This document shows, one piece after another, positions 12,332 to 63,865 of a stretch of DNA of 64,000 bases. The stretch's first letter is position 1. Each line of letters starts with the position of its first letter. The DNA comes from an uncultured bacterium (GTDB lineage: Bacteria; Bacillota; Clostridia; Oscillospirales; CAG-272): contig CASFDI010000067.1 in the NCBI GenBank assembly GCA_949293405.1, positions 534 through 64,533 of the forward strand. The letters are read 5' to 3'. Under the pieces are notes generated by a model. It saw only the letters and a program-made list of their open reading frames with translations. It ran no database searches and was not told where the DNA came from. Both the position numbers and the translations under genes were made by a program.

Positions 12332-12606
12332 ATAATTTCATCAAAGGCGTTGATGGAGAGAAGTACTGCGGAAGAGCGTTTACAGTGAGTGCGGGAGAGT
12401 GTGAACCGCAAAACGGCGTCCGCACGAATAACACTCCGGAGCCGCAATCTGAACGCAGGAATGTCAGTAGGTGCGCCGGTTATCCCCCGTCATCGGGAAG
12501 GGACTTGACAGAGTCCTGTGAGTGGCTGCAGATGCAGCAAGATAGGTGGTACCGCGGGAGCATGCCTCACCGTCCTATGAAGAGGACGGAGGCATGCCCT
12601 TTTGTT
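12332..12606 (+). promoter_or_regulatory. T-box leader (tRNA-Asn specifier) with terminator/antiterminator
   Basis: Stem-I elements are present (GATGGAGAG...GTA, AGTGAG...GGGAGAG). The candidate specifier GAAUAACAC (12426-12434) contains AAU and AAC, each followed by A. The conserved T-box sequence AGATAGGTGGTACCGCGGGAG lies at 12539-12560. A terminator hairpin at 12560-12606 ends in CTTTTGTT. Confidence 0.85.
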
Positions 12607-32004: not shown

Positions 32005-32189
32005 CATTGTCAAGTCAGGGGTGCGCTCCGGCGCTGAGACAGGCTCCGCCTGAACCCTTCGTACCTGATACGGATCATGCCGTCGTAGGGAGATTTTGCA
32101 GCAGATACCGGGAGGCTCCGCTGGGTGAGGGCGTGCCTGCCGTATCTTCCGGAACTTCAACCGCACGGTGACCGTGCGGTTTTCTGTTT
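32005..32189 (+). promoter_or_regulatory. TPP (THI-box) riboswitch with terminator expression platform
   Basis: Conserved elements GGGGTGC, CTGAGA, ACCCTT and ACCTGATACGGATCATGCCGTCGTAGGGA. The terminator is AACCGCACGG-tga-CCGTGCGGTT followed by TTCTGTTT (32159-32189). Confidence 0.9.
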
Positions 32190-32937: not shown

Positions 32938-33320
32938 TGCGTCGGAAGACGGCGCGGTCGCGCGGTATGGTGCCGAAAGGTATTACCGTGAGGAAAGTCC
33001 GGGCTTCACAGGGTAAGGATAACGGATAACATCCGCCGAGGGTAACCTCAGGGAGAGTGCAACAGAAATATACCGCCGGCTCAGGCCGGTAAGGGTGGAA
33101 CGGCGAGGTAAGAGCTCACCGGGTCTTCCGGTAACGGTTGACCCCTGTAAACCCTATCCGAAGCAACGCCTGCGGGAGAGCCGAAAGGTTGCGGTACCCG
33201 CCGAAATCCTGCTGGCGGCAGGAGGCATGCCTCCGAGCCATCCGGTGACGGGTGGCAAAGATAGATGATCGCGGTTCGCATATGCGTTCACAGAACCCGG
33301 CTTACATGTTTTCCGACATT
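32938..33320 (+). ncRNA. rnpB: RNase P RNA (bacterial, type A-like)
   Basis: Universal blocks GAGGAAAGTCCGGGC (about 32989), GGTAAGAGCTCACC and ACAGAACCCGGCTTA (about 33291). P1 pairs GTCGGAA (32941-) with TTCCGAC (-33317). Confidence 0.92.
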
Positions 33321-49712: not shown

Positions 49713-51416
49713 ATGGCTCGCTCTAGACTGCGCATCACACTGCTGGTCGCTGTTTTGGTGATCGCCCTGCTCTGGGTGGGAGCGGCTGTTACTGCCGCCA
49801 ACCGCGAAGACGGCACAGTGACCGCAACCGCGTGGGCATTTGTGCCTGCCATTGTGGCAATCGGTCTCGCGCTGGTTTCCAAACAGGTGTATATTTCCCT
49901 GTTTGCAGGTATTTTTACCGGCACGATGCTGCTGGCTGACGGCAACCCGATTTACGCCGTTACGTACCTTTATCAGAGCCTGGCCGAAAAACTGGGTGAG
50001 AATGCCTGCATCCTGGTCTTCCTGGTGTGTCTGGGCATTCTGGTGGTCCTGATGGGAAAATCAGGCGGTTCCCGTGCATACGGCGAATGGGCGCGCAAGC
50101 GTATCACCACCCGCAAGGGCGCCATGCTTGCAACTGCCGGACTCGGTTGCCTCATTTTCGTCGACGACTATTTCAACTGTCTGACCGTGGGCAGCATCAT
50201 GCGGCCCGTGACTGAAAGCCACAAGGTCTCGAAAGCCAAACTGGCCTACATTATTGACTCCACCGCAGCGCCGGTATGCATCATTGCCCCGATTTCATCC
50301 TGGGCGGCCGCGGTCAGCGGCTCGGTGGTGGGAGAGAACGGCATCATGACCTTTATCAAGACCATTCCGTTCAACCTGTATGCCCTGCTGACCATTGCCA
50401 TGGTGTTTGTCACCACTGCCCTTTCGATTGATTTCTTCAAGATGCGCCGCAACGAGGCCATCGCCCTGCGGACCGGGGACCTGACCGCAGGCGAGACCGA
50501 TCTGCCTGCTGAAGACCTGGACGAGCGCGACATCCGCACCGACGGCAAGGTTGCTTATCTGGTGGTGCCGATCGTGCTGTTGCTGGTCTGCTGTGTCGGC
50601 GGCATGCTGTTCAACGGGTTCTACTACGACTGGGACGCAGGTTCCATCTCGACCACCCTGCAGACACACAACATCATCGACGCTTTTTCCAGTTGTGATG
50701 CCGGTCTGAGCCTTGCGGTCGGTTCCACGATTGCACTGGCGCTGACCATCCTGTATTATGTATGCGCCGGAGCACTGACCTTCCGCGCCTGCACCGACTC
50801 CTTCACCCAGGGCTTCAAGGCCATGGTCCCTGCTATCCTGATCCTGATTTTCGCCTGGACCATCAGCGGCGTCATGGGAGCCAAGGGCGGCGGACTGGAG
50901 GCAAAAACCTTTGTGGAAAACACGGTTTCCCGCATTGACGGCAGCCTGCTGGCACTGCTGCCTGCCATCTTCTTTGTCCTGGCATGTTTTATCGCCTTCT
51001 CCACCGGTACCTCCTGGGGTACCTTCGGCATCCTGATCCCGATTGCCAGTACCCTGGTACTGGGCGCACATGCCACATCCGAGTTTTCCTATCTGATGAT
51101 GAGCGCCATTCTGGCCGGCTCGGTTTACGGCGACCATGTTTCTCCCATTTCCGATACCACCATCATGTCCAGCTCGGGCGCCCAGTGCAATCACCTCGAT
51201 CATGTGCGCACCCAGATGCCCTATGCGACCCTGGTTGCCGGCATCTGCCTTGTGGCGTATATTGTTCTCGGCTTCATTGCCAAAGCAGGAGTCAACTACG
51301 GCCTGCTCACCGTCTGCTCGCTTGCGATCGGAGCGCTGCTCTTTGCCGGCACCATCTATGCGTTGCAGGTGTATACCAGACGCAAGGATGCTGCAGAAGC
51401 CAGGGAAACGGAATAA
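49713..51416 (+). CDS. nhaC: Na+/H+ antiporter NhaC family protein
   Basis: 567-aa polytopic protein with NhaC-type blocks (FVDDYFNCLTVGSIMRP, YGDHVSPISDTTI). RBS GGAGGA. The ORF-track extension is rejected. Confidence 0.8.
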   Translation: MARSRLRITLLVAVLVIALLWVGAAVTAANREDGTVTATAWAFVPAIVAIGLALVSKQVYISLFAGIFTGTMLLADGNPIYAVTYLYQSLAEKLGENACILVFLVCLGILVVLMGKSGGSRAYGEWARKRITTRKGAMLATAGLGCLIFVDDYFNCLTVGSIMRPVTESHKVSKAKLAYIIDSTAAPVCIIAPISSWAAAVSGSVVGENGIMTFIKTIPFNLYALLTIAMVFVTTALSIDFFKMRRNEAIALRTGDLTAGETDLPAEDLDERDIRTDGKVAYLVVPIVLLLVCCVGGMLFNGFYYDWDAGSISTTLQTHNIIDAFSSCDAGLSLAVGSTIALALTILYYVCAGALTFRACTDSFTQGFKAMVPAILILIFAWTISGVMGAKGGGLEAKTFVENTVSRIDGSLLALLPAIFFVLACFIAFSTGTSWGTFGILIPIASTLVLGAHATSEFSYLMMSAILAGSVYGDHVSPISDTTIMSSSGAQCNHLDHVRTQMPYATLVAGICLVAYIVLGFIAKAGVNYGLLTVCSLAIGALLFAGTIYALQVYTRRKDAAEARETE

Positions 51417-51454: not shown

Positions 51455-51646
51455 TTGACTTTTTACCAGACTTCGGGTATAATATTTCCGTAAAAGGGAG
51501 TAGTTTGCGTGCTGTGCACGACCTGCGGTTCGTCATTCCGATGACTGTCATCCGGATCGCGGGGGACCCTGCTTTCGCGGTTTATAACAAGACTTTTACC
51601 GTTCGGACTGTAAAAGTCTTTTATTTTTGCGGAAAGGATTATTTTT
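51455..51646 (+). promoter_or_regulatory. promoter plus structured leader (about 160 nt) ending in an intrinsic terminator: candidate riboswitch or attenuator
   Basis: TTGACT (51455-51460), a 17-nt spacer and TATAAT (51478-51483). Leader hairpins: CGTGC-tgt-GCACG, an imperfect hairpin within TCCGATGACTGTCATCCGGA, and ATCGCG...CGCGGT. The terminator is AAGACTTTTAC/GTAAAAGTCTT followed by TTATTTTT (51589-51628), 19 nt before the ATG. Confidence 0.55.
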
Positions 51647-52771
51647 ATGGAAGTACTTTACGAAAACCTGCTGTTGCTCGACTGGAAAATGCTGTTCATG
51701 TGGGCGATCGGCGGCGCACTGATCTTCCTCGCCATCAAAAAGCAGATGGAACCCACGCTGCTTCTACCGATGGGGTTCGGCGCCATTCTGGTCAACCTGC
51801 CCCTCTCGGGCGCCGTCACGCAGATCCACGACGGCGTTTCCGAAATCGGTATCATCAGCCTGCTGTTTGACAGCGGAATCGCCAACGAACTCTTCCCTCT
51901 GCTGCTCTTTATCGGCATCGGCGCGATGATCGACTTCGGTCCCCTGCTCTCCAACCCGCGCCTGTTGATCTTCGGCGCAGCGGCTCAGTTCGGAATTTTC
52001 TTCACACTGAGCATGGCGGCTCTTTTCGGTTTTGATCTGAAAGACGCGGCTTCCATCGCCATCATCGGCGCAGCAGACGGACCGACCTCCATCTTCGTGG
52101 CCAACTTCTTCCAGTCTAAATACATCGGCGCCATCATTGTTGCCGCCTACTCCTATATGGCGCTGGTTCCGATCGTTCAGCCTCCGGTCATCCGTCTGAT
52201 CACCACTAAGAAGGAACGGCGCATCCGCATGGCGTACAAAGCGGACAGCGTCAGCAAGCTCACCCGCATCCTCTTCCCCATTCTGGTGACCGTCATTACC
52301 GGTCTTGTGGCTCCCAGGGCGGTCGCGCTGGTGGGATTTCTCATGTTCGGAAACCTGATCCGGGAATGCGGTGTTCTCGATTCGCTCTCCGATACCGCTC
52401 AGAAAACGCTTGCCAATCTGGTGACCCTGCTGCTGGGTATCACGGTCGCAGCACGCATGCAGGCAGACGCATTCCTCAATTGGGAAACCATTCTGATTCT
52501 CTGTCTGGGGTTGGTAGCGTTCATATTTGACACGGTGGGCGGTGTGCTCTTTGCGAAATTCCTGAATCTGTTCCTGAAGAAGAACAAGATCAACCCCATG
52601 ATCGGCGCAGCCGGCATTTCGGCTTTCCCCATGTCTGCGCGTGTGGTCCACAAAATGGGGCTTTCAGAGGATAATCAGAATTTCCTGCTGATGCACTCGA
52701 TCGGTGCCAATGTTTCCGGTCAGATCGCCTCTGTCATTGCAGGCGGACTGATCCTGAGTTTTCTGGGATGA
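51647..52771 (+). CDS. sodium ion-translocating decarboxylase beta subunit (OadB/GcdB/MmdB family)
   Basis: 374-aa polytopic protein. The N-terminus (...LIFLAIKKQMEPTLLLPMGFGAILVN) and blocks IIGAADGPTSIF and GAAGISAFPMSARV are typical of the family. Confidence 0.88.
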   Translation: MEVLYENLLLLDWKMLFMWAIGGALIFLAIKKQMEPTLLLPMGFGAILVNLPLSGAVTQIHDGVSEIGIISLLFDSGIANELFPLLLFIGIGAMIDFGPLLSNPRLLIFGAAAQFGIFFTLSMAALFGFDLKDAASIAIIGAADGPTSIFVANFFQSKYIGAIIVAAYSYMALVPIVQPPVIRLITTKKERRIRMAYKADSVSKLTRILFPILVTVITGLVAPRAVALVGFLMFGNLIRECGVLDSLSDTAQKTLANLVTLLLGITVAARMQADAFLNWETILILCLGLVAFIFDTVGGVLFAKFLNLFLKKNKINPMIGAAGISAFPMSARVVHKMGLSEDNQNFLLMHSIGANVSGQIASVIAGGLILSFLG

Positions 52772-52781
52772 GGTGAATAAG

Positions 52782-52949
52782 ATGAATTTCGAACTGTTTC
52801 TGGAAACGCTTCCCCTGGTCGGGAAAGGAATGCTGGGGATCTTCATTGTAACCGGGGTCATTATTCTGACCGTTCTGTTGCTCAACCGGCTGACACGGCC
52901 GAAAGGGCAACCGACCGCTTCCTCCGACGAGGACTCGTCGGGCGACTGA
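52782..52949 (+). CDS. OadG-like decarboxylase gamma/anchor subunit (55 aa, absent from the ORF track)
   Basis: ATG at 52782 with RBS GAGGTG 6 nt upstream, 10 nt after the beta-subunit stop. The product is MNFELFLETLPLVGKGMLGIFIVTGVIILTVLLLNRL... with one TM helix and an acidic tail, the OAD_gamma pattern. Confidence 0.6.
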   Translation: MNFELFLETLPLVGKGMLGIFIVTGVIILTVLLLNRLTRPKGQPTASSDEDSSGD

Positions 52950-52957
52950 ATCTGTTT

Positions 52958-53046: not shown

Positions 53047-53075
53047 TTGACAAAAAATGCAGAAGGCGATATAAT
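53047..53075 (+). promoter_or_regulatory. sigma-A-type consensus promoter of the nine-gene transporter operon
   Basis: TTGACA (53047-53052), a 17-nt spacer and TATAAT (53070-53075). The leader carries a hairpin GTCG-gca-ACAAACTG/CAGTTTGT-CGAC (53086-53124), followed at 53135 by T6. Confidence 0.7.
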
Positions 53076-53162
53076 TTGTTAAAGAGTCGGCAACAAACTG
53101 TAATAAATATTGCAGTTTGTCGACTGATTTCACATTTTTTGCCATGCGAAAGGAGTCCGATT

Positions 53163-53990
53163 ATGAAAAGACTTTTTGCAGTTTTGCTGGTTCTGTCACT
53201 TGTGCTGACCGTGCTTGCCGGATGCGGTACAGACGCAGACCAGACCACTCCTGCCACGACCACGACAGGGGCGGCAACACCCGACCCGATCACAACCGAA
53301 TATTCCTTTGTCGCCGGATACGAAAAAGAGATCGATATGGGCGGCACAGTGGTTTCGACGCAGGCATCTGTCCTGATGAATCTGTACAGTGACAACACCG
53401 CCGAGATTTACATCGGGTATATGGGCATGGGCGGATACTCCTCCGCATGCTATGAGGGCACCTACACCATGACGCCTGATCTTGATGAACTGGATCTCAG
53501 TCTGACCTATACATACACCAGCGGAGAAGAAGAGCAGACCGCTACCATTGATACCACGCTTGTCGGGTTCAGTTTTGACGCTTCCGTCTTTCTGATTGCC
53601 TCCTTCCCCTCTGAGCCGCTGACCTTCTATGAAATCCCTCCCGTGACGCTTGGCGAAGGAGACGGTTATGTCGGCATTCTGGTCAAAACTACCGGTATGG
53701 GCGAAATGATTTACGCTTACTATCTGGAAATGAACGGTGACAATACCTTTACGGTTGCGGCCCTGCAGCACGCCGCGGTTATGCACATCGCGGAAACCCA
53801 GAACGGCACATATACCCGCGACGGCGAGACGGTTGTATTCACCTACGATGTGATGGGAGACGGCGAAGTGCAGGCTGAAGACCACACCTCGACCTGTTCT
53901 GATTTCGCAGAACAGACGCTGACGGTCGGCTTCAATGTCGGCCAGGCAGGCACCCCCACCACCCCCGCGCCTTTCATCAAAGTAAAATAA
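53163..53990 (+). CDS. hypothetical lipoprotein (lipocalin-like motifs)
   Basis: Lipobox LTVLAGCG, then a Thr/Pro-rich linker and beta-rich repeats with DNTFTV ... GTYTRDGETVVFTYD. RBS AAAGGAG. Confidence 0.6.
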   Translation: MKRLFAVLLVLSLVLTVLAGCGTDADQTTPATTTTGAATPDPITTEYSFVAGYEKEIDMGGTVVSTQASVLMNLYSDNTAEIYIGYMGMGGYSSACYEGTYTMTPDLDELDLSLTYTYTSGEEEQTATIDTTLVGFSFDASVFLIASFPSEPLTFYEIPPVTLGEGDGYVGILVKTTGMGEMIYAYYLEMNGDNTFTVAALQHAAVMHIAETQNGTYTRDGETVVFTYDVMGDGEVQAEDHTSTCSDFAEQTLTVGFNVGQAGTPTTPAPFIKVK

Positions 53991-54028
53991 TTTTTCTGAA
54001 AGTAATTTTATCCAAAGGAGATCCGATC

Positions 54029-54727
54029 ATGGGAAGAGAAAGAAACGAACAGGGCGAGCTCAACCGCTTTTTCCGCTGGGCATACAGCACCCGTGCAAAG
54101 AATGTACAGGCGATGGCCGACGGCGCAATGCAGCGCGGCGAAATGACGCCTGAGAAAATGTTCCTCAGCTTTACCTCACACGACCCGACATTCATCAGCA
54201 ACGGCCCCGCCGGACTCAACGGCTCTGTCAAGGGAATCGGTTTTATTCCCCGCGAGGAATATCTGCAGGCCGCATTGGAAGCATATATTGCTCATATCCG
54301 CACCTTTGACCCGGATGACAAGACCTACAGCGACCGCGGCCTGAAACTGCTCATCAAGTGGCTCTATAGCGAAGAAGCCGAAAAGACGATTGATTTCGAG
54401 CATATCTACAGCGTGGAAATGGCCTTTAAGCACAGCTACGAAAACTATAAAGTCAACCCGGAAGCTACACTGGTCTTCTATCAGCCGCCTGTCATCAGTT
54501 ATGAAGTACGCGGAAAAATGGAGATTATCGGCGAACATCATGAGAAGGGATCGGTTTCCCCGTTTGAGCTGCCCGTTCTGCAACAGTTTGTCAACGCACA
54601 GCACGATGTCTACCATTATCCCAACATTGAGCGCTGGGTCACCCGCCCGGTTTATAAATTCACGGTTGAAGAGATCTTCGATAACTCGGCCAACCAGAAC
54701 GGCTTCGGGACCCAAATTCCATACTGA
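54029..54727 (+). CDS. hypothetical cytoplasmic protein (possible split-barrel fold; weak guess)
   Basis: 232 aa, no signal peptide. RBS AAAGGAG. The segment NPEATLVFYQPPVISYEVRGKMEIIGE resembles PNPOx/HugZ-type split barrels. This is not verifiable by eye. Confidence 0.5.
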   Translation: MGRERNEQGELNRFFRWAYSTRAKNVQAMADGAMQRGEMTPEKMFLSFTSHDPTFISNGPAGLNGSVKGIGFIPREEYLQAALEAYIAHIRTFDPDDKTYSDRGLKLLIKWLYSEEAEKTIDFEHIYSVEMAFKHSYENYKVNPEATLVFYQPPVISYEVRGKMEIIGEHHEKGSVSPFELPVLQQFVNAQHDVYHYPNIERWVTRPVYKFTVEEIFDNSANQNGFGTQIPY

Positions 54728-54744
54728 AGATCCGGAGATATAGC

Positions 54745-56652
54745 ATGAAAGCCAAACGATTGCTCTGCCTGCTGCTTGCCGCACTGATGCTGGCCGGTAG
54801 CTGTCTGCTCTTTGCGGGCTGCGGGCGGGAAGAAAAATATGCGGGAGCGTTGGTGATCGGATCGTCCACCCTCCCGAAAAACCTCAATCCCTACTCTTCC
54901 ACCTCTTCCACTTTCTTTGTGGATCTGTTTTATGACACCCTGCTGGGGGCGGCTGCTACACCTGTCGGTTACACTGCCGATCCGGAAAACTTCCGCTTTC
55001 CGGACGGCAGTACCTTCACCCCGGTCGATACCAGCAACAACCCGCTCGCCTTCACGGATAATCTGCTGTCCTACGAAGGAGCACTTCCCCGCCCGGACGG
55101 TTCGGATTACGGATATGTATACTTTGATCCCACAGAGGAGCAGTGGGAAGAACAGTGCGAACGCGAATCGATCCGCGAAGGCTTCGATGAAGTCGGACTT
55201 CCGATTGAGGAAACCCACGAAGAGTTTCTCGCACGTGCGGAAGAGACGGTTCCGCGGGAAAACTGGATGGAATTCCGGTTTGCAGTGCGTCCGGGATACA
55301 CCTGGAACGACGGCACGCCTTTTACCGCAGAAGACATCAAGTTTACCTTCGACTACATCATCAGACACAAGGCGGAGCTCTCCAGTCAGGCATACTTCCT
55401 GACCGACTACTACCAGAGCTCTGTGGAAGAAGACGGTGACTTCGTCTTTATCCTGGCGTCCAACAACTACTCTGCCATGAAATCGATCTGCAACAGTATT
55501 GTGATTCTGCCCCAGCATATCTGGCAGACTGTGCGTAAGCCCCAGGAAGAAAAGAACCTGAACCCGGTAGGCACAGGCCCCTACTACCTCAAGGCGGAAG
55601 ACTACATTGCAGACAGTTCGATCACGGTTACCATCCGCGACGACTACAATGAAGCGCTGCTCAGGGAGGATTTTGCAGGAGAGCCGGTTGCCAATATCAG
55701 CGTGCAGCTGATGAGCAATCTGGATGTACTGATCCAGTCCCTGCAGCAGGGTGATATCCATATGATTATGGACACCATCGACACAACAAAGGCCTATCAG
55801 GTCATGAATAATTCCGCATACAGCAATATTGACATGTCCTCGACCCGCAACGACTTTGTCACCACGCTGCTCTTCAATGTGGGGCCTTACGGCGCTTTCC
55901 GGGAAGGCGAACTCAACGGCTACTCCCAGCAGATCCGTGAAGCGATTTCCCTGTGTATCGATCAGCAGTCCCTGATTTCCGAGGTGCTCTTCGGAATGGG
56001 CACCACGGTAGGCGACGGTCTGGTGCAGTCTTATATGGCGCATGCCCTGGTAGATGAAAACGGAAATTATGTGGAGCACCACACCGATGTTGCTGCGGCA
56101 AACGCCCTGCTTGACACTACCACCTATCTGAAAGATGCGGACGGATACCGCGGTCTGACCTTTACCGTCCTTGCTTCTCCCGAACAGGAGACGCTTGTCC
56201 GTGCCATCGGCAACCAGCTCGCCGCCATCGGAATCCGCCTGGAATACGAAATGGCGACAAGCACCTATGCCGAGGACATCAAGCAGTACAATCATGCCGA
56301 TTTTGACATGATTCTCAACTCGGTGACCTTCGGCGCGGATAAACTGCTGATGTTCAGCGCACGGTACGGCACCTACAATACCGGCAGCCCGCGTGTATTC
56401 AACTACTCCGGCGTTATCGACGAAGAACTGAACGAGCTGATGCTTCAGATGGAGCGCACCGCAAATACACAGCAGCAATACGAACTCAGCCGCGAAGTAC
56501 AGGCGCGCATTGCTGAGCTGGCCGTTGAAATTCCCTTGTTCTCGCAAAACATGATCACCTTTTATTCAGACAGCGTATTCAGCGGATGGATCGAAACCGA
56601 AGGCTCATCCATCTGGAACGGATACACCCTGCGTTATCTGAAAGTAAACTGA
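54745..56652 (+). CDS. ABC transporter substrate-binding lipoprotein, family 5 (Opp/Dpp/Nik type)
   Basis: Lipobox LLFAGCG. 635 aa. It has family-5 blocks (RPGYTWNDGTPFTAEDIKFTFDY, GTGPYYLK). Confidence 0.85.
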   Translation: MKAKRLLCLLLAALMLAGSCLLFAGCGREEKYAGALVIGSSTLPKNLNPYSSTSSTFFVDLFYDTLLGAAATPVGYTADPENFRFPDGSTFTPVDTSNNPLAFTDNLLSYEGALPRPDGSDYGYVYFDPTEEQWEEQCERESIREGFDEVGLPIEETHEEFLARAEETVPRENWMEFRFAVRPGYTWNDGTPFTAEDIKFTFDYIIRHKAELSSQAYFLTDYYQSSVEEDGDFVFILASNNYSAMKSICNSIVILPQHIWQTVRKPQEEKNLNPVGTGPYYLKAEDYIADSSITVTIRDDYNEALLREDFAGEPVANISVQLMSNLDVLIQSLQQGDIHMIMDTIDTTKAYQVMNNSAYSNIDMSSTRNDFVTTLLFNVGPYGAFREGELNGYSQQIREAISLCIDQQSLISEVLFGMGTTVGDGLVQSYMAHALVDENGNYVEHHTDVAAANALLDTTTYLKDADGYRGLTFTVLASPEQETLVRAIGNQLAAIGIRLEYEMATSTYAEDIKQYNHADFDMILNSVTFGADKLLMFSARYGTYNTGSPRVFNYSGVIDEELNELMLQMERTANTQQQYELSREVQARIAELAVEIPLFSQNMITFYSDSVFSGWIETEGSSIWNGYTLRYLKVN

Positions 56653-56708
56653 TCACATCGTCCGAAACCCGGCTGTGCCGGGTTTCGCTTTAGAGAGGAA
56701 CCACCGCT

Positions 56709-57815
56709 ATGAAGCGATATTATGCCCAGAAACTGATCAGCGCGGTTTTTGTACTCTTCATTATCATCACGCTGAACTTTTTCCTGCCACGAATGATGTT
56801 CGACGATCCGGCGCAGCCCTACTACGCCGGTGTGCCGGAGGACGCCTATGCTCTCCGCCAGGAGATCCGGGAAGCCAACGGATTCAACGATCCTCTGATC
56901 GTACAGTACGGCGCATATCTCGGGCGCCTGTTCACACTGAATTTCGGCACTTCTTACATATATAAGGAGCCGGTTTTCCAGGTGATGTTCTCGCGGATCC
57001 CATGGTCACTGGTCATAACGCTGACCTCCATGGTCGTGTCGGTCATTGTTGGAATCCTGATCGGTGCCTATGTCGGTAAGAGACGCGAGATGACTGCCGA
57101 TAAAGTTCTGCTCGGCTTTTCCACCGTGACCACTGCCATCCCGTCTTTCTGGCTGGCACTGGTTTCTATCATGCTGCTGGCATTTATCATTCCGATCTTC
57201 CCGTACCGTGGTGCCATGACTCCCGGCTATACACTGGGATTCCATACAATACCGTTTCTGGTGGTGTTCTTGCTTTTCATTGCGGCAGCCATTGCTCTGC
57301 GGATTATTTTACGGAAATCGATTTTCCTCTTCACCGTGATTCCCGCCGGCTTGCTGGTTGCCCTGCTGGTTGCTGTTCCCCCGGCGGATGTTCTGGATGT
57401 CCTCTACCATGCAGCCCTGCCCCTCATCGTTGTCATTTTCGGCAGTTGTATTTCCTACTCCCTGCTGGTGCGCAACAGCATGATTGCGGTCACATCGGAA
57501 GACTACATCCTGACTGCCCGGGCCAAAGGGTTGCCGCCTCGTGTGGTACTCTATAAACATACTTTCCGCAACGCGCTGCTTCCCCTGATCACCAATGTCG
57601 GCATGTCCCTGTCCGGACTGATCGGTGGATCGGTCCTGATTGAAAAGATTTTCAGCTGGCCCGGAATGGGACAGTTGCTTCTGGAGGCTACCAACAACGG
57701 CGACTATCTGCTTTCCCAGGCGATTCTGCTGCTTTTCGCTATTCTGACCATTACCTTCAACCTGATTACCGATCTTGTATACCATAAATTTGACCCGCGG
57801 GTCACCCGCGCGTGA
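56709..57815 (+). CDS. ABC transporter permease (OppB/DppB/NikB-like)
   Basis: N-terminal YYAQKLISAVFVLFIIITLNFFLPR pattern and the EAA-loop region (DYILTARAKGLPPRVVLYKHTFRNAL). Confidence 0.88.
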   Translation: MKRYYAQKLISAVFVLFIIITLNFFLPRMMFDDPAQPYYAGVPEDAYALRQEIREANGFNDPLIVQYGAYLGRLFTLNFGTSYIYKEPVFQVMFSRIPWSLVITLTSMVVSVIVGILIGAYVGKRREMTADKVLLGFSTVTTAIPSFWLALVSIMLLAFIIPIFPYRGAMTPGYTLGFHTIPFLVVFLLFIAAAIALRIILRKSIFLFTVIPAGLLVALLVAVPPADVLDVLYHAALPLIVVIFGSCISYSLLVRNSMIAVTSEDYILTARAKGLPPRVVLYKHTFRNALLPLITNVGMSLSGLIGGSVLIEKIFSWPGMGQLLLEATNNGDYLLSQAILLLFAILTITFNLITDLVYHKFDPRVTRA

Positions 57816-57830
57816 GAAGGAGGAGCCGAT

Positions 57831-58853
57831 ATGGAAAAAGCAAAAAAAATTGCCTCATCGGTCGGTGCCGCCTGCGCGCGTGCAGGAATTGCAATCGGAC
57901 GCCTGTTTGCGAAGATCTGGAAGAATCCCAAGGGCAGACGGGGACTGATCATGGTGGGAATCGTAGTGCTTGCGGCACTGCTGGCACCTATCCTTACCCC
58001 CTACGATCTGCACGAGTACAATGTAACGGAGGGGTTGCAGCAGCCTTCCTTCTCCCACTGGCTCGGGACCGACAAGAACGGTGTCGACATTATGACCCAG
58101 GTTCTCTACGGTGCCCGCATTTCCCTGATTATCGGCATCACAACCGGCATTTCGGTCACTTTGCTGGGCGCCATCATGGGAATCATGTCCGCCTATTTCG
58201 GAAAAGTGCTCAGCGTCACCATTCTCAATCTGATCAATGTCCTGCTGGTGGTGCCTACCCTGCCGCTGATGATGGTACTTTCCAATATTTCATCCAGTTA
58301 TGTGATGATGATCCTGATTTTCACCCTCTTCGGCTGGTGCGGTACCGCCCGCATGATCCGTGCGCAGGTACTTTCCATTGTCAACATGAACTATGTGCGC
58401 GCCGCCGAGTTGTCGGGCGCAAGCAAAAGCTACATCATGTTCCGCCACATCATGCCGGCGGTTGCACACCTTCTGATCATGAACTGCGCGCTCTCCTGCG
58501 CGGGCTTCATGGTGGCGGAAGCGGGACTCAGCTTTATCGGGTTGGGTGATGCTTCGGTCATGAGTTGGGGTAAAATTCTGGTTGCCGCAGAACGCGATGC
58601 CTTTACCTCCGGTCTGTGGGCCTGGGTGCTCGCGCCCGGCGTTGCCATTTTCTTCACGGTATTTGGCTTTATGCAGGTGGGATATGCCCTGGAAGAAATA
58701 TTCAACCCGCGTGTCAAGCGGAAGAAAACTTCGTCCAAAGATTCCCGCTCGGCCACAGAGTCTGCTGATGCGATTTTTGCCTCTATGGAAGACCTGCCGC
58801 TCGAAGATGCCAAAACACTGAAAGAAGCCTACCTGAAAGGAGAAACACACTGA
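57831..58853 (+). CDS. ABC transporter permease (OppC/DppC/NikC-like)
   Basis: HWLGTDKNGVDIMTQVLYGARISL and NYVRAAELSGASKSYIMFRHIMP blocks. An extra charged C-terminal tail is present. Confidence 0.88.
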   Translation: MEKAKKIASSVGAACARAGIAIGRLFAKIWKNPKGRRGLIMVGIVVLAALLAPILTPYDLHEYNVTEGLQQPSFSHWLGTDKNGVDIMTQVLYGARISLIIGITTGISVTLLGAIMGIMSAYFGKVLSVTILNLINVLLVVPTLPLMMVLSNISSSYVMMILIFTLFGWCGTARMIRAQVLSIVNMNYVRAAELSGASKSYIMFRHIMPAVAHLLIMNCALSCAGFMVAEAGLSFIGLGDASVMSWGKILVAAERDAFTSGLWAWVLAPGVAIFFTVFGFMQVGYALEEIFNPRVKRKKTSSKDSRSATESADAIFASMEDLPLEDAKTLKEAYLKGETH

Positions 58854-59887
58854 TGCAACCCGTATTGGATATACACGGTCTGAAAGTGCTGTTCCGGGTG
58901 GGCAACACCTATATCCGTGCCGTAGAAGGAGTGGATATCACGGTCGGAGAAGGTGAAAGCGTGGCAATCGTGGGTGAATCGGGATGCGGCAAAAGCGTCA
59001 CCGGACTTGCCTGTATGAAACTGCTTGCCCAGCAGAACGCAGTCTATACCGCCAAGAAAATGACCCTTCAGACCAAGGACGGCCATGTTCACGACCTGCT
59101 GTCCGAAAGCGAAAACGGTATGCTCGCCCTGCGTGCTGAACAGATCGCAATGATTTTCCAGGATCCGTCCACCTTTCTCAATCCGGTCATGACGGTAGGA
59201 GAACAGATGGATGAAGTCTTCCTGTATCACCCGGGAGCAGTCACACAGGAGGACGGAAAAGCCGCGCACAAACTTTCGCGCGACGAGGCGAAACGTCTTT
59301 CACTTGAGCAGTTCCGGCGCGTGGGGATCCCTGACCCGGAAATGCGTTACAAACAGTTTCCCCATGAGCTGTCAGGCGGACTGAAGCAACGCATTCTGAT
59401 CGCTATGGCAACAGCTTGCAAACCGCGGCTGCTGATTGCAGACGAACCCACAACCGCCCTTGATGTGACCATTCAGGCACAGATACTGGATCTGATCACT
59501 ACTCTGCGCCGCGAAAGCGGCATGTCCCTGCTGATGATCACCCATGATCTGGGCGTTGTCCGCGCGGTCGCGGAACGCTGCTATGTCATGTACTGCGGCA
59601 AGATTGTGGAGCATGGCTATGTGCGCGACATTCTTGAGCATCCGCTTCACCCGTATACCAAGGCGCTGATCGATACGGTCCCCGGACTTGACGACCGGGT
59701 GGAACGGTTTGTGCAGATTCCGCACAATGTGCCTCACCCCTCGCAGAAGCCTTCCGGATGCTTTTTTTCCAACCGGTGCGCCTTTTGCACCGGGATCTGC
59801 CAGAGTGCCATGCCGCCCCTGCGGGAACCGGTACCCGGCCGGCAGACCCGGTGCTGGTTTGATAAGGAGGAGTTATGGGAGAAATAA
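58853..59887 (+). CDS. ABC transporter ATP-binding protein (OppD/DppD-like)
   Basis: Walker A GESGCGKS, signature LSGGLKQR and Walker B LIADEPTTALD, plus the C-terminal Opp-type Cys-containing extension. Confidence 0.9.
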   Translation: MQPVLDIHGLKVLFRVGNTYIRAVEGVDITVGEGESVAIVGESGCGKSVTGLACMKLLAQQNAVYTAKKMTLQTKDGHVHDLLSESENGMLALRAEQIAMIFQDPSTFLNPVMTVGEQMDEVFLYHPGAVTQEDGKAAHKLSRDEAKRLSLEQFRRVGIPDPEMRYKQFPHELSGGLKQRILIAMATACKPRLLIADEPTTALDVTIQAQILDLITTLRRESGMSLLMITHDLGVVRAVAERCYVMYCGKIVEHGYVRDILEHPLHPYTKALIDTVPGLDDRVERFVQIPHNVPHPSQKPSGCFFSNRCAFCTGICQSAMPPLREPVPGRQTRCWFDKEELWEK

Positions 59888-60864
59888 TCCTGTCCACAAA
59901 CGAACTTTCGGTTGACTTCCGCATCCAGAACAAGGTTTTCGGTTCTCCCGATATCCTCTCGGCTGTCAGCAAAGTAAACCTGCAGATTGAACGGGGCGAA
60001 ATTTTCGGCCTGGTCGGTGAATCCGGATGCGGCAAAACCACTTTGGCGAACGCTATTCTCGGCTTTGTCAAGCCGACCGCCGGCTCAGTTTCCTTTATGG
60101 GTCATACTCTCACCCGGACCACTTCCCCGAAGGTGTGGAGACAGGCTCGGCGCAATATGCAGATGGTCTTCCAGGACCCCTACACCTCGCTTGACGCGCG
60201 TATGCCGGTCTGGCAGCTGGTCAGCGAACCGCTGTATATCAACGGAGAGCGCAATGAGCATGTCCTGAGGGAACGCGCAGAGGAACTTCTGTTGCGCGTC
60301 GGTCTCGGCCGGGACGATCTGGACCGGCATGTATTTGAGTTTTCAGGCGGACAGCGGCAGCGCATTGCCATTGCGCGTGCGCTGATCGGTGGGGCAAAAT
60401 TCATCGTCTGCGACGAGCCGGTGTCGGCCCTGGATGTTTCGGTCCACTCCCAGATCTGCAATCTGCTGCTCGATCTGCAGCAGGAAATGGAACTGACTTA
60501 TCTGTTCATCTCACATAATCTTTCCCTGATCAAGCACATTACCAAACATATGGCGGTGATGTATCTGGGCACGGTTCTTGAATGCGGCAGTACCGAGGAG
60601 ATTTTCCGTTCACCGGAATGCCCCTATACACAAGCCCTGATTTCTTCCATTCTGCAACTGCATCCTACAGCAGATACGCAGAAGATTATCCTGCGTGGCG
60701 AAGCGACAAGCCCGGTCAACGCGCCTCTCACCTGCCGGTTTGCCTCCCGGTGCAGTGCGGCCTGTGAAAAGTGCAGAACCGCTCCCCTGCCCCCACTGAC
60801 CAATATCGGGAATGACCATTTTACCAGTTGTCATCTGGCATTGCAGGAGGGATCACATGAATAA
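59875..60864 (+). CDS. ABC transporter ATP-binding protein (OppF/DppF-like)
   Basis: Walker A GESGCGKTT, signature FSGGQRQR and Walker B IVCDEPVSALD. It overlaps the preceding gene by 13 nt. Confidence 0.9.
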   Translation: MGEIILSTNELSVDFRIQNKVFGSPDILSAVSKVNLQIERGEIFGLVGESGCGKTTLANAILGFVKPTAGSVSFMGHTLTRTTSPKVWRQARRNMQMVFQDPYTSLDARMPVWQLVSEPLYINGERNEHVLRERAEELLLRVGLGRDDLDRHVFEFSGGQRQRIAIARALIGGAKFIVCDEPVSALDVSVHSQICNLLLDLQQEMELTYLFISHNLSLIKHITKHMAVMYLGTVLECGSTEEIFRSPECPYTQALISSILQLHPTADTQKIILRGEATSPVNAPLTCRFASRCSAACEKCRTAPLPPLTNIGNDHFTSCHLALQEGSHE

Positions 60865-61543
60865 CAACACGCAGCATCCCCCTTGCCCCTGCAAACCGCA
60901 GTGTCCGCATTACGGACATTGCCGCGACTGCATTGAGGCACATCGGAAGTACTATACGCCCCCCTTCTGCGTCCGGCAGATGCAGAAGGAAATGAAAGAA
61001 AAGCATCTGCACCCGATCAATCCACATCAGAAGACTACACTCACCGAACGGATTGAAACTTTTTACCGGGAGCATCCCGACGAACACCTGCGCTCGGTTG
61101 CACAGGCGCTCGGTATCACCGAGTGGCAGCTGCTGGATGCCATGACCGGTGCGATACCGGTCCCGACAGCGGACTACCCCGCTATCTATGACCGGCTGGC
61201 AGGGCTGCATGCCGTGCTGCTGCATCTGGATACCGGAGCGGTGATCTTTCAACTGGAAACCGCACTGCCGCCGCGGACAGAGATGCACGAGGCGCACCTG
61301 CTCCGGAAAGCCTCAGACGGAATGTCCATGACCGCCCTGCTCTTCCCGCAGAATCTGTACGCCGCCTTTCTGGTGCGTGAACAACTGTACGGCAAGGAGA
61401 GCCTGAGTCTGGCGCTGGTAGGAGAAGACGAACGGATTGCCCTTTCCTTCTATCTGCGCCGCGACGCACAGGGCGTGATGGACACTGCATCCAAAGAGCT
61501 GTTTCTGGATCTGTGGAAGCACTATGCCCCGACAGAATCGTAA
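60857..61543 (+). CDS. fusion protein: N-terminal Cys-rich small domain plus C-terminal ChuX/HutX-like (heme-utilisation carrier-like) domain
   Basis: The start overlaps the OppF-like stop by 8 nt. RBS AGGAGGGA. The N-terminus is PPCPCKPQCPHYGHCRDCIEAHRKYYTPPFC. The C-terminal roughly 160 aa parallels V. cholerae HutX block by block (see findings). Confidence 0.6.
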   Translation: MNNNTQHPPCPCKPQCPHYGHCRDCIEAHRKYYTPPFCVRQMQKEMKEKHLHPINPHQKTTLTERIETFYREHPDEHLRSVAQALGITEWQLLDAMTGAIPVPTADYPAIYDRLAGLHAVLLHLDTGAVIFQLETALPPRTEMHEAHLLRKASDGMSMTALLFPQNLYAAFLVREQLYGKESLSLALVGEDERIALSFYLRRDAQGVMDTASKELFLDLWKHYAPTES

Positions 61544-61576
61544 TCCCCGAAATTCATCATACAAAGGAGACTCATT

Positions 61577-62422
61577 ATGAAAAAGTTCTGGCTGACAACA
61601 CTGGCCCTGCTCTGTCTTCTGGCCCTGCTCGCCTCCTGCGGCGGAACGGAGACCGGCACTACTACGGCAGGTACCACCCCTGATGCAGGCACTACGGCGC
61701 CTGAAAACACCACAGCCCCCGATCAAACCACAGCGCCCACCGAAACAACCCCCGGCACGACTGCCCCCGAAGCCCCCACGACCTCTGAAAAGGAACTGGC
61801 AGCCGGTATCTATGAAACCACCATCACCCCCGAGGGTATGCCCATGTCCTTCGCCATTCACCTGACCGTCAAGGCGGACAACACCTTTGTCCTCTCCAAC
61901 GGCACCGATGAAAAGGGCAGCGGCACCTGGGCGGTTGCAGACGGTGTTTATACCCTGGATTTCGGCAATGAGAAGACCTCGCGCTTTGTCGTACTGGCAA
62001 ACGATGATCTCTTCTTCCTCGACAGCCTGCCCTACGGCGCCGCTTCTGTTTCCATTGACTCGGTGGACGAGATCCGCATTCCGCTGACTTCCCGCATTTC
62101 CGAGAAGACGCTGGCGACCGGCATTTACGAAACCACCATCACCCCTGAGGGCATGCCCATGTCCTTCGCCATTCACCTGACCGTCAAGGCGGACAATACC
62201 TTTGTCCTCTCCAACGGCACCGATGAAAAAGGCAGCGGCACCTGGGCGGTTGGTGCCAACGGCGTCTACACGCTCGATTTCGGCAATGAGAAGACCTCAC
62301 GCTTTGTCGTTCTGGCAAACGATGATCTCTTCTTCCTCGACAGCCTGCCCTACGGCGCGGCTTCGGTCTCCATTGACTCAGTGGACGAGATCCGGATCCC
62401 GCGTACCGGAGATGTTCAGTAA
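61577..62422 (+). CDS. lipoprotein with a Thr/Pro-rich linker and two tandem ~100-aa lipocalin-like modules
   Basis: Lipobox LLASCGG, then a T/P/A-rich linker (residues about 24-70), then two near-identical modules. RBS AAAGGAG. Confidence 0.75.
   Translation: MKKFWLTTLALLCLLALLASCGGTETGTTTAGTTPDAGTTAPENTTAPDQTTAPTETTPGTTAPEAPTTSEKELAAGIYETTITPEGMPMSFAIHLTVKADNTFVLSNGTDEKGSGTWAVADGVYTLDFGNEKTSRFVVLANDDLFFLDSLPYGAASVSIDSVDEIRIPLTSRISEKTLATGIYETTITPEGMPMSFAIHLTVKADNTFVLSNGTDEKGSGTWAVGANGVYTLDFGNEKTSRFVVLANDDLFFLDSLPYGAASVSIDSVDEIRIPRTGDVQ
61787..62401 (+). repeat. intragenic tandem duplication (2 x about 300 nt, period 315 nt)
   Basis: Core copy 1 is 61805-62083 and core copy 2 is 62120-62401. 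My manual codon alignment gives about 20 synonymous third-position differences and one replaced patch (AD versus GAN). Confidence 0.9.
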
Positions 62423-62446
62423 GTAAATTTCAGACGCAACCGTTAT

Positions 62447-62480
62447 CCGGTGAGGCATGTCCCATGCCTCACCGGTTTAT
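62447..62480 (+). terminator. terminator hairpin closing the nine-gene operon (weak U-tract)
   Basis: 13-bp perfect stem CCGGTGAGGCATG/CATGCCTCACCGG with loop TCC, followed by TTTATAAA. Confidence 0.6.
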
Positions 62481-62492
62481 AAAGGAGCACTT

Positions 62493-63779
62493 ATGAAACC
62501 GGATGACAAACTGTATTCCGCATACCTGCAGATTCTGCATGAAGAACTGATCTGCGCGATGGGCTGTACGGAACCGATTGCGGTAGCCTACGCGGCGGCA
62601 CTTGCGCGTCGCACACTGGGCGCAGTACCTGAAGCAGTAACCGTATCGGTCAGCGGAAACATCCTGAAAAATGTAAAAAGCGTGATCGTCCCGCACACCG
62701 GCGGCCTGCGCGGCATCCCTGCGGCAACCGCGGCGGGGATTGTGATGGGCAATCCGGATCGGCAGCTGGAGGTTCTGGCGGACGCGAATGCTTCCCTGCT
62801 CCCCGCCATCCGTCAATACATGGAGGAAGTCCCCATAGCAGTCCGGCACGATGAGGGTCCTTATATTTTCAGCATCTGCGTGTCCGTGAAAGCAGGAGAG
62901 GATACCGCAGAGGTGCGCATTGTAGGTCACCACACCAATGTGGTACGGATAAAGAAGAACGATACCGTACTGATGGAAAAAGAACCCGAAGCCCCCACCA
63001 CCGACACCCTGACCGACCGCTCACAGCTGTCGGTAGAGGGGATTGTCGCCTTTGCAGACTGCCTGCGGGAAGAAGATGTCGCGGACCTGTTTGAAAGGCA
63101 GATTTCCTGCAACATGGCGATTGCGGCAGAAGGACTGCGCGGCAATTGGGGGGCCAATATCGGAAAAGTTCTGCTCTCGGTATACGGCGATGATGTCAAG
63201 ATCCGCGCGCGCGCCATGGCGGCGGCAGGATCGGACGCACGGATGAACGGCTGCGAAATGCCGGTCGTCATCAACAGCGGCAGCGGTAACCAGGGCATCG
63301 CTGCCAGCGTGCCGGTGGTCGTCTATGCACAGGAGTTGGGTGTAGACCGCCCGATGCTCTACCGTGCGCTGGCTGTCTCCAATCTGTGCGCCATCCACAT
63401 GAAGACCGGTATCGGCACACTGTCCGCCTACTGTGGTGCGGCAAGCGCGGGTGTCGCGGCAGGCGCAGGCATCTCCTATCTGACCGGTGGCGACCTGCGC
63501 GAGATTTCTCATACCCTGGTCAACGGAGTTGCCATTGTTTCCGGCCTGATCTGTGACGGAGCAAAAGCATCCTGCGCAGCCAAGATCGCCACTGCGGTAG
63601 ATGCCGGAATCCTGAGTCTATACATGTTCCGTCAGGGCAACCAGTTCCGCGGCGGCGAAGGGATTGTAAAAAAAGGAGTGGAAAACACCATCCACAATGT
63701 CGGCAAACTGGCACATGACGGCATGTGCGGAACCGACCGGGAGATCATTTCCCTGATGCTGGACGACGCTCGTACATAA
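62493..63779 (+). CDS. L-cysteine desulfidase family protein (UPF0597/YhaM, serine-dehydratase-alpha-like)
   Basis: The N-terminal motif ICAMGCTEPIAVAYAAALA and 428-aa length fit the family. RBS AAAGGAG before the ATG at 62493. Confidence 0.75.
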   Translation: MKPDDKLYSAYLQILHEELICAMGCTEPIAVAYAAALARRTLGAVPEAVTVSVSGNILKNVKSVIVPHTGGLRGIPAATAAGIVMGNPDRQLEVLADANASLLPAIRQYMEEVPIAVRHDEGPYIFSICVSVKAGEDTAEVRIVGHHTNVVRIKKNDTVLMEKEPEAPTTDTLTDRSQLSVEGIVAFADCLREEDVADLFERQISCNMAIAAEGLRGNWGANIGKVLLSVYGDDVKIRARAMAAAGSDARMNGCEMPVVINSGSGNQGIAASVPVVVYAQELGVDRPMLYRALAVSNLCAIHMKTGIGTLSAYCGAASAGVAAGAGISYLTGGDLREISHTLVNGVAIVSGLICDGAKASCAAKIATAVDAGILSLYMFRQGNQFRGGEGIVKKGVENTIHNVGKLAHDGMCGTDREIISLMLDDART

Positions 63780-63780
63780 C

Positions 63781-63835
63781 AAAAAAACAGTCAAGTCACC
63801 CGCCCCGTGCCGCATGCGGCACGGAGCGGGTGACT
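63781..63835. terminator. long composite hairpin between convergent genes
   Basis: The outer stem AAGTCACCCGC/GCGGGTGACTT encloses CCGTGCCGC-at-GCGGCACGG. An A7 run lies on the plus-strand 5' side, which is a T7 after the hairpin on the minus strand. Confidence 0.65.
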
Positions 63836-63865
63836 TCTATGAAACTGCCCCTCCGACGGATCCGC

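Follow-up and report, generated by a model that had tools for sequence, protein, structure and literature searches.

A conserved nine-gene operon of uncultured gut Clostridia, encoding a family-5 importer with predicted split-barrel and ChuX/HutX-fold partners, is a candidate heme acquisition system

A nine-gene operon was examined in a 64,000-nucleotide stretch of DNA (hereafter the window) from an uncultured gut Clostridia bacterium (GenBank assembly GCA_949293405.1, contig CASFDI010000067.1, positions 534 to 64,533 of the forward strand). An initial annotation had described this operon as a candidate system for acquiring a tetrapyrrole or metal chelate, in which an ATP-binding cassette (ABC) importer of family 5 is encoded together with lipoproteins and a cysteine-rich, ChuX-like protein. 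The operon is real and conserved, and its genes, termed g1 through g9 below, are co-directional on the + strand in the list of open reading frames (ORFs) of the window. These genes, the signals around them and the gene that follows (g10) are listed here.

53047-53075, + strand: sigma-70-type promoter (TTGACA-17-TATAAT)
53085-53130, + strand: leader palindrome or hairpin with a U-rich stretch, a candidate operator or attenuator (core 53096-53121)
53163-53990, + strand: g1, surface lipoprotein of 275 amino acids (ORF; lipobox LAGC)
54029-54727, + strand: g2, cytoplasmic protein of 232 amino acids with a predicted split-barrel (PNPOx-like) fold (ORF)
54745-56652, + strand: g3, family-5 substrate-binding lipoprotein of 635 amino acids (SBP_bac_5; lipobox FAGC)
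56709-57815, + strand: g4, OppB/NikB-type permease (BPD_transp_1 and BPD_transp_1_N)
57831-58853, + strand: g5, OppC/NikC-type permease (BPD_transp_1 and OppC_N)
58853-59887, + strand: g6, OppD-type ATPase (ABC_tran and oligo_HPY)
59875-60864, + strand: g7, OppF-type ATPase (ABC_tran and oligo_HPY)
60857-61543, + strand: g8, cytoplasmic protein of 228 amino acids with a Cys/His-rich part and a predicted ChuX/HutX fold (PF06228)
61577-62422, + strand: g9, surface lipoprotein of 281 amino acids with two near-identical lipocalin-like modules (lipobox LASC)
62448-62476, + strand: strong hairpin with a weak U tail (RNA folding)
62493-63779, + strand: g10, SDH_alpha or cysteine-desulfidase-like gene (PF03313, E 1.3e-59)

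The arrangement of the nine genes, with gaps of 38, 17, 56, 15 and 33 nucleotides and overlaps of 1, 13 and 8 nucleotides, agrees exactly with that given in the initial annotation. Where the same genes occur on other contigs, separate gene calling reproduced product lengths of 275, 232, 635, 368, 340, 344, 329 and 228 amino acids. Readable lipoboxes are present in g1, g3 and g9, and g2 and g8 are without a signal peptide. The promoter, also noted earlier, is confirmed as a 12/12 match to consensus and is the sole such match between positions 51000 and 64000, an interval that shows no general excess of promoter-like sites (10 observed versus 8.0 expected). In the leader, the palindrome core reads CAAACTGTAA-TAAATA-TTGCAGTTTG (53096-53121), and folding of the RNA from 53083 to 53162 yields -25.8 kcal/mol (z-score -4.2), with the hairpin followed by AUUUCACAUUUUUUG. 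This element could be either an operator palindrome or a transcription attenuator. The leader matches no Rfam family at gathering scores, and hence no cobalamin or other riboswitch.

The strong closing hairpin of the initial annotation was recovered at 62448-62476 as a 13-base-pair stem (-28.5 kcal/mol, z-score -5.9) that was equaled in stability by 0 of 200 shuffled sequences. This structure was missed by a consensus terminator scan because its tail is just UUUAU, and it is probably a terminator, possibly a leaky one. Since g10 starts only 17 nucleotides past the hairpin (at 62493) with its own ribosome-binding site, read-through from the operon is possible, and g10 may belong to the same unit.

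To establish the distribution of the operon, one genome per species was scanned with a g2 profile, which detected relatives in 240 species representatives; 80 loci were fetched, and their ORFs were searched with the proteins of the window. The nine-gene order recurs in approximately 20 further species of uncultured Clostridia with differing flanking genes, so that the conservation expected among related Clostridia is borne out, and three long contigs carry the identical order between unrelated flanks. In the close clade, which comprises 27 species-level loci, g1 precedes g2 in 25 of 25 loci long enough to judge, and g9 and g8 are present in 20 of 21 and 17 of 21 such loci, respectively. The accessory genes are therefore co-conserved with the transporter, as had been proposed. 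Across phyla, the full g3-g7 set is found close to g2 in 58 of 60 loci, a gene for a family-5 substrate-binding protein (SBP) directly follows g2 in 70 of 75, and in two loci (L058 and L062) g2 is located between transporter genes. The partner tied most tightly to the transporter is thus g2 and not the ChuX-like gene: the conserved core consists of g2 and the importer, to which a single clade has added the ChuX-like gene and its own g1 and g9 lipoproteins.

Loci outside the close clade carry a variety of other neighbors. Similar lipoproteins flank the core in many of them, a cluster that is perhaps inflated by low-complexity linkers. In an intermediate clade (L034, L035, L037 and L039), a small FMN_bind lipoprotein (PF04205, 22.4 bits) and a Big_2 lipoprotein are encoded upstream of g2, and the former hints at a possible extracellular flavin-dependent step. 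In six loci (L053, L054, L064, L066, L069 and L072), the gene immediately after the transporter ATPase gene is a close homologue of g10 (514-551 bits), and another such homologue lies on the opposite strand in L077. Putative histidine-utilization genes stand directly upstream of the g2-ABC core in seven loci that probably represent one lineage (L045, L053, L059, L066, L070, L072 and L075); by names read from their sequences, they resemble glutamate formimidoyltransferase, imidazolonepropionase, urocanate hydratase and cyclodeaminase-like genes. In one spirochaete locus, the gene after the transporter is SufS-like.

Genes g3 through g7 are predicted to encode a complete family-5 (Opp/Dpp/Nik, PepT-type) ABC importer. 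The SBP_bac_5 domain of g3 (PF00496) is matched with an E-value of 1.1e-39 (137 bits versus a cut-off of 32.4), and the domain matches of g4, g5, g6 and g7 all exceed their Pfam cut-offs. The placement of g3 was judged from NCBIfam equivalog scores and from the ranking of its relatives in the PDB. Among the OppA, DppA, NikA, CntA and GsiB models, g3 reaches no equivalog cut-off: the top model, TIGR04028, scores 78.5 bits against a cut-off of 468.5, and lower scores are given by NikA (58.7 versus 393, E 3.9e-16), Opp4A (53.8 versus 650) and CntA (28.6 versus 800). Its closest solved relatives are SBPs for chitin oligosaccharides, mannosides or peptides (E approximately 1e-22), with MbnE, AgaA, NikZ-type proteins and Lmo0135 also present, and the only Dpp-type protein among them is B. 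subtilis DppE (E 8.8e-4). These scores, far below every equivalog cut-off, indicate that g3 sits in no characterized clade, in agreement with the idea that it would fall outside the known OppA, DppA and NikA groups. Permeases g4 and g5 score highest on nickel/cobalt Opp1/Opp2/Nik models, far below the cut-offs and with oligopeptide models about equal.

Protein g2 exceeds the threshold of no Pfam or NCBIfam family. PNPOx_N is matched below threshold by the window protein (14.7 bits versus 28.1) and by 17 of 33 family members, and searches of the PDB by single sequence and by profile yielded just spurious matches to designed helical proteins. A split-barrel fold is nevertheless predicted by an AlphaFold2 model of high confidence (predicted local distance difference test (pLDDT) score 93), for which Foldseek matches (E 4e-6 to 1e-3) include PNPOx-like proteins, Rv1155, F420-reductase, HupZ, the biliverdin reductase Rv2074 and the heme-bound plant protein At3g03890. 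On this model, g2 is a protein of the FMN-binding split-barrel fold, which gives a predicted structure to what had been listed as an unknown cytoplasmic protein. Four histidines (H51, H89, H192 and H196) are invariant, the last two within the motif NAQHDVYH. Both H192 and H196 sit in a C-terminal helix and are at most candidate counterparts of the C-terminal histidine by which HutZ ligates heme.

The g2 family is compact: a profile search of 1.84 billion cluster representatives retrieved only 120 at E<=1e-3. Its members are 75-83% identical in the close clade, and those from Izemoplasmatales, spirochaetes, Haloplasma and one Mycoplasmatota genome reach 55-60%. Because the family is rich in invariant polar residues, an enzyme would fit better than a passive carrier, and we propose that g2 is a heme acceptor or heme-processing protein. 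Three distant relatives (P0310, P0311 and P0337) are fused to universal stress protein domains and to PCP_red (Pfam PF08369), the domain that forms the C-terminal part of subunit B in protochlorophyllide reductase.

Protein g8 matches ChuX_HutX (PF06228) over residues 82-205 with 27.7 bits against a gathering score of 25, and precomputed annotation places the same domain in most of its relatives. A model built from an alignment of 34 homologues (AlphaFold2, pLDDT 86) is matched by Foldseek to ChuX (6u9j and 2ovi) and HutX (5exv) with template-modeling (TM) scores, normalized to the target, of 0.88-0.90 and E-values of 2e-12 to 5.5e-11. The superpositions have root-mean-square deviations of 1.9-2.4 A across approximately 160 residues, and the next-ranked matches are PhuS, HemS and ChuS. 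The ChuX-like identity suggested initially is therefore upheld by both the domain match and the modeled fold. By its equivalog score, g8 is not a HutX orthologue, since it reaches 42.2 bits (E 7e-11) on the HutX equivalog TIGR04108, below the 110-bit cut-off. We propose that g8 is a heme carrier.

The first ~60 residues of g8 form an extra domain with conserved C10, C12, C16, C22, C25, C38, H29, H50, H52 and H57. This part had been likened to the Pfam 'Cysteine-rich small domain', an assignment that was not sustained: no match to it was found even at E<=10. Two relatives of g8 match DUF6485 below threshold (E 0.014-0.06), and the N-terminal part of the window protein itself gives only a weak GCK match (E 0.026). 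Homologues of g8 at ~55% identity are confined to uncultured Clostridia. The gene is missing from L016, L020, L022 and L025, where the remainder of the operon is retained, and the ChuX-like gene is therefore dispensable in some species. A g8 homologue in L028 (16575-17297) is broken into two ORFs by a frameshift or as a pseudogene.

The two surface lipoproteins had been called lipocalin-like, a description in line with profile matches in both families. The g1 protein of the window has no Pfam match, and thus no lipocalin match of its own, and a search of the PDB with a profile of its family came up empty; Lipocalin_4 is, however, matched weakly by 13 of its 19 relatives (best E 5.7e-4). For g9, the window protein scores 17.9 bits on Lipocalin_4 (PF13648) against a cut-off of 22.4, and 9 of 10 family members match the same model (best E 4.7e-8). 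The window protein also reaches 27.1 bits on NlpE_N (PF04170; cut-off 22) as a whole, with no single stretch significant. Because a homologue search with g9 was swamped by its low-complexity Thr/Pro linker and returned g9 alone, its relatives were drawn from the fetched loci. An exact look-up of g9 among recorded contigs gave no entry. Both lipoproteins are probably lipocalin-like proteins for ligand capture, an assignment taken from hidden Markov model matches of their relatives only.

The two-module character of g9 is evident as an internal duplication of ~303 nucleotides (61784-62084 and 62099-62402) with ~90% DNA identity; Tandem Repeats Finder reported no rows for this gene, which holds just two copies of a ~315-nucleotide period. 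A three-module allele of 386 amino acids (P0340) from another sample falls into the same 90%-identity cluster, and this difference in module number is explained by copy-number variation or else by assembly collapse. In L087, another contig with the operon, the g9 gene is cut off by the contig end. In g9 relatives from other species, the second module differs.

Evidence on the ligand comes from loci in which g2 and g8 are linked to another importer class. Two Lachnospiraceae loci (L036 and L038) encode a g2 homologue (62-64% identity) and a g8-like protein (34% identity, with the Cys-rich part retained) behind an importer composed of an IsdE/Lmo2184-like SBP, a FecCD permease and a FecE/HmuV-like ATPase. 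On the IsdE model TIGR03659 (cut-off 298.65), this SBP reaches 282-286 bits, versus 35-38 bits on BtuF, and its PDB matches are Listeria Lmo2184 (5joq, 2.8e-54) and S. aureus IsdE (2q8p, 1.9e-41). A Met and a His are kept at chain positions 49 and 200 of 2q8p, which with an offset of 29 we take to be the IsdE heme ligands Met78 and His229. CydD/CydC-like exporter pairs adjoin the operon in 25 loci, and in L038 such genes follow the g8-like gene (384 bits versus 435 and 311 versus 329). CydDC is described as a heme transporter required for cytochrome bd assembly (PMC10374445). Furthermore, HutX has been reported to hand heme to the split-barrel enzyme HutZ (PMC12670364), and split-barrel HOZ-like genes have been reported beside ChuX and beside BPD- and FecCD-type transporter genes (PMC11602992).

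Many related loci also share a palindrome, GTTAGC-N4-GCTAAC (for example, GTTAGCCATGGCTAAC), upstream of g1 (L004, L007-L009, L011-L014, L018, L020-L022, L024 and L026-L032). One or two copies are placed at the -35 box or immediately before it, and the palindrome appears again in the leader, at the place equivalent to that of the different palindrome in the leader of the window. It also precedes regulator and CydDC-like genes and, ~60 nucleotides upstream, the IsdE-like gene in L036 and L038. The loci, 1.37 Mb in all, contain 63 strict matches, most of them at the positions just named. The shared palindrome suggests an operator of one dedicated regulon, and its regulator may be the MarR/DtxR-like helix-turn-helix protein encoded upstream in L014, L018, L020, L022 and L028.

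The original proposal of tetrapyrrole or metal-chelate uptake thus gains support, and the loci in which g2 and g8 follow an IsdE-type importer, together with the linked CydDC-like genes, point to heme as the more specific ligand. We consider it fairly probable that the operon is an acquisition system for heme or a closely related iron-porphyrin. Gene structure, folds, families, co-conservation and genomic associations are what was observed here; the path proposed below, with heme as its ligand, its sequence of transfers and any reaction of g2, is inferred from them. Lipoproteins g1 and g9 would capture a hydrophobic ligand at the surface and pass it to g3, from which it would be imported by the OppBCDF-type translocator g4-g7. 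In the cytoplasm, g8 would accept the ligand, with a further metal or redox site perhaps supplied by its Cys/His-rich extension. Transfer from g8 to g2 would then place g2 in the part played by HutZ or HupZ, either holding the ligand or processing it for iron release or cofactor supply.

Several observations weigh against this interpretation. His65 and His98, the proposed heme-binding residues of ChuX, correspond to Asp125 and Leu161 of g8 in a phmmer alignment to 2ovi, and the nearly invariant H123 and invariant Y168 close to these positions might substitute as ligands. The top fold matches of g2, which belongs to no named Pfam or NCBIfam family, are generic PNPOx-like or F420-dependent proteins with TM scores of 0.58-0.73. 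Similarly, g3 is not close to the known heme-binding family-5 proteins, and its solved kin bind oligosaccharides or peptides. The window itself is without the GTTAGC-N4-GCTAAC operator and CydDC-like genes, and it also contains no IsdE-like, FecCD-like, DUF454 or regulator genes of the kinds found at related loci. In most lineages, the g2-ABC core is without a ChuX-like gene. Some distant cores stand beside histidine-utilization, cysteine-desulfidase-like or SufS-like genes, which could mean that another substrate is imported, and these neighbors might, speculatively, equally reflect heme-derived iron feeding iron-sulfur (Fe-S) assembly. Finally, heme oxygenase chemistry of the HutZ type requires O2, which is rarely met by these gut anaerobes; given a strictly anaerobic host, such chemistry is therefore unlikely.

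A further version of the heme interpretation, which we regard as doubtful, is that g2 would be the first member of a novel enzyme class that processes heme without oxygen, such as a dechelatase or a reductive ring-modifier that would act via the four invariant histidines, with g8 serving it and the lipoproteins replacing NEAT receptors as a new kind of monoderm heme receptor. If this were true, strictly anaerobic Bacillota, Mycoplasmatota and spirochaetes would extract heme iron without the radical S-adenosylmethionine (radical-SAM) enzyme ChuW or an HmuS-type enzyme.

Other ligands have to be weighed against heme. It is unlikely that the operon imports a thiol or cysteine compound, such as a cysteinyl peptide, a glutathione-like molecule or a cysteine conjugate, with g2 acting as a flavin redox enzyme and g10 releasing sulfide. 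Such a role would suit the g2 fold, which is typically flavin-binding, the position of g10 after the operon here and directly after the transporter in the six distant loci, and the SufS-like gene behind the spirochaete transporter. It would also accord with the second label of CydDC in NCBIfam, 'thiol reductant exporter', and with the presence among the solved relatives of g3 of Lmo0135, a cysteine-transport-associated protein. However, a thiol substrate leaves unexplained the ChuX-fold protein, the association of g2 and g8 with an importer of the IsdE type in which the heme ligands are retained, and the lipocalin-like lipoproteins, which are suited to hydrophobic ligands. In addition, g10 is unlinked in the close clade, and its six distant loci are perhaps one lineage.

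It is quite unlikely as well that the operon resembles NikABCDE or Cnt in taking up a metal, whether nickel, cobalt or some other, bound in a chelate or metallophore. On this view, the Cys/His-rich part of g8, with six conserved Cys and four His within ~60 residues, would act as a cytoplasmic metallochaperone, and the ChuX fold would have been turned to a non-heme ligand. The preference of the permeases for nickel/cobalt models, the similarity of g3 to NikA and its solved kin MbnE, AgaA and NikZ-type proteins are in keeping with a metal, but the scores fall far under the family cut-offs and oligopeptide models do comparably well, and the IsdE-type and CydDC-type associations indicate heme. We know of no nickel or opine system with lipocalin-like capture proteins.

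A corrinoid or another non-iron tetrapyrrole, for example a chlorophyll-derived porphyrin in herbivore guts, is a very unlikely ligand. In that case, g8 would be the carrier and g2 would carry out processing, as might be expected from the association of both the ChuX and split-barrel folds with tetrapyrroles, from the PCP_red fusions of distant g2 relatives and from the origin of many loci in metagenome-assembled genomes (MAGs) of ruminant, deer and rabbit guts. Against this stand the absence of a cobalamin riboswitch from the leader and a family-5 rather than BtuF-type SBP, the far better IsdE than BtuF scores of the importer in the two Lachnospiraceae loci with its iron-ligating Met and His kept, and the occurrence of the family in human, chicken, biofilm and brine organisms. 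Least likely of all is an ordinary oligopeptide or oligosaccharide importer with functionally unrelated accessory genes, a reading favored by the standard OppBCDF-type components and by closest solved SBPs that bind chito-oligosaccharides, mannosides and peptides, but opposed by g2 being embedded in or adjoining the transporter across phyla, by the co-conservation of g1, g8 and g9, and by the joint travel of g2 and g8 to another importer class.

The surroundings of the operon include a gene for OAD_beta, the beta subunit of a sodium-translocating decarboxylase (51647-52771, + strand), directly upstream, and an ORF of 55 amino acids (52783-52950, + strand) lies between the two. A second near-consensus promoter (11/12) is located at 51455-51483. 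Just past g10 is a 20-base-pair GC-rich hairpin (63793-63836), whose U-run is on the minus strand and which is therefore the terminator of a convergent gene, possibly bidirectional. The only Rfam hits in the window lie away from the operon, all on the + strand and above the gathering score: a T-box leader (12341-12580), a thiamine pyrophosphate (TPP) riboswitch (32007-32108) and a bacterial RNase P class A RNA (32942-33320).

A search of the literature found no description of this gene cluster. To our knowledge, the anaerobic heme routes described so far are those of radical-SAM ChuW/HutW/HmuW and of Hmu in Bacteroidota, and the acquisition and use of heme by strictly anaerobic gut Firmicutes are poorly known. 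The locus is a testable and widespread candidate for a heme pathway, with g2 relatives in 240 species representatives, nearly all of them uncultured. Its undescribed parts are a very conserved split-barrel family without a Pfam model that is tied to two ABC importer classes, a Cys/His-rich domain fused to a ChuX fold, and lipocalin-like surface lipoproteins that would stand in for NEAT-domain receptors. If the heme interpretation is correct, many gut and rumen MAGs could be better annotated, and a new player would be added to the competition for heme and iron in the gut.

Family-5 importers that carry heme are known from E. coli, in which DppABCDF acts with DppA or MppA, and from the Dpp system of M. 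tuberculosis. These are of the same class as g3-g7 and have the same subunits, namely an SBP_bac_5 protein, two BPD_transp_1 permeases and two oligo_HPY ATPases. However, g3 is not close to DppA or MppA, and the known Dpp operons are without dedicated lipocalin-like, ChuX-like and split-barrel genes. The Hmu system of Porphyromonas and Bacteroides reportedly combines the lipoprotein hemophore HmuY with cytoplasmic HmuS for oxygen-independent heme handling in anaerobes. The likeness to the proposed path is one of plan: an anaerobe, capture by a surface lipoprotein, import, and O2-independent handling of heme inside the cell. No homology was found between the two systems, and Hmu belongs to diderms, is TonB-dependent and uses other cytoplasmic proteins.

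Among Gram-positive systems, S. aureus IsdEF and Listeria Lmo2184 are paralleled by the two Lachnospiraceae loci, in which the g2 and g8-like pair follows an IsdE-like SBP with the Met and His positions. In contrast, the transporter of the window is of another ABC class, and neither NEAT-domain receptors nor an IsdG/IsdI-type oxygenase are present. Streptococcus pyogenes HupZ, a split-barrel protein proposed to be a heme chaperone, is among the fold matches of g2 (7kpz and 5esc) and is likewise a Gram-positive protein encoded with heme-uptake genes (PMC11602992). Compared with HupZ, g2 is ~100 residues longer, has extra helices and shares 13-14% identity, and its many invariant polar residues point to an enzyme more than to a plain carrier. 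The neighborhoods described for HOZ-like genes, which are HugZ homologues, with ChuX and with BPD/FecCD transporters (Grosjean et al. 2024, PMC11602992), are both contexts seen for g2, which may or may not belong to their family (IPR037119) and which has its own invariant motif NAQHDVYH and forms a compact family.

A close parallel in gene content is offered by HutWXZ of Vibrio cholerae and ChuX of E. coli O157, for which, as in this operon, ChuX/HutX-fold and split-barrel proteins are encoded with a transporter. The operon differs in that it has no radical-SAM HutW/ChuW gene, that g2 falls below all HutZ/HugZ-type thresholds, and that g8 bears the extra Cys/His-rich N-terminal domain and scores 42 rather than the 110 bits of the HutX cut-off. 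Moreover, its host is a monoderm anaerobe, and its transporter is of family 5 and not of the HutBCD type. By analogy with these systems, the operon would represent a HutX/HutZ-like hand-off attached to an Opp/Dpp-type importer.

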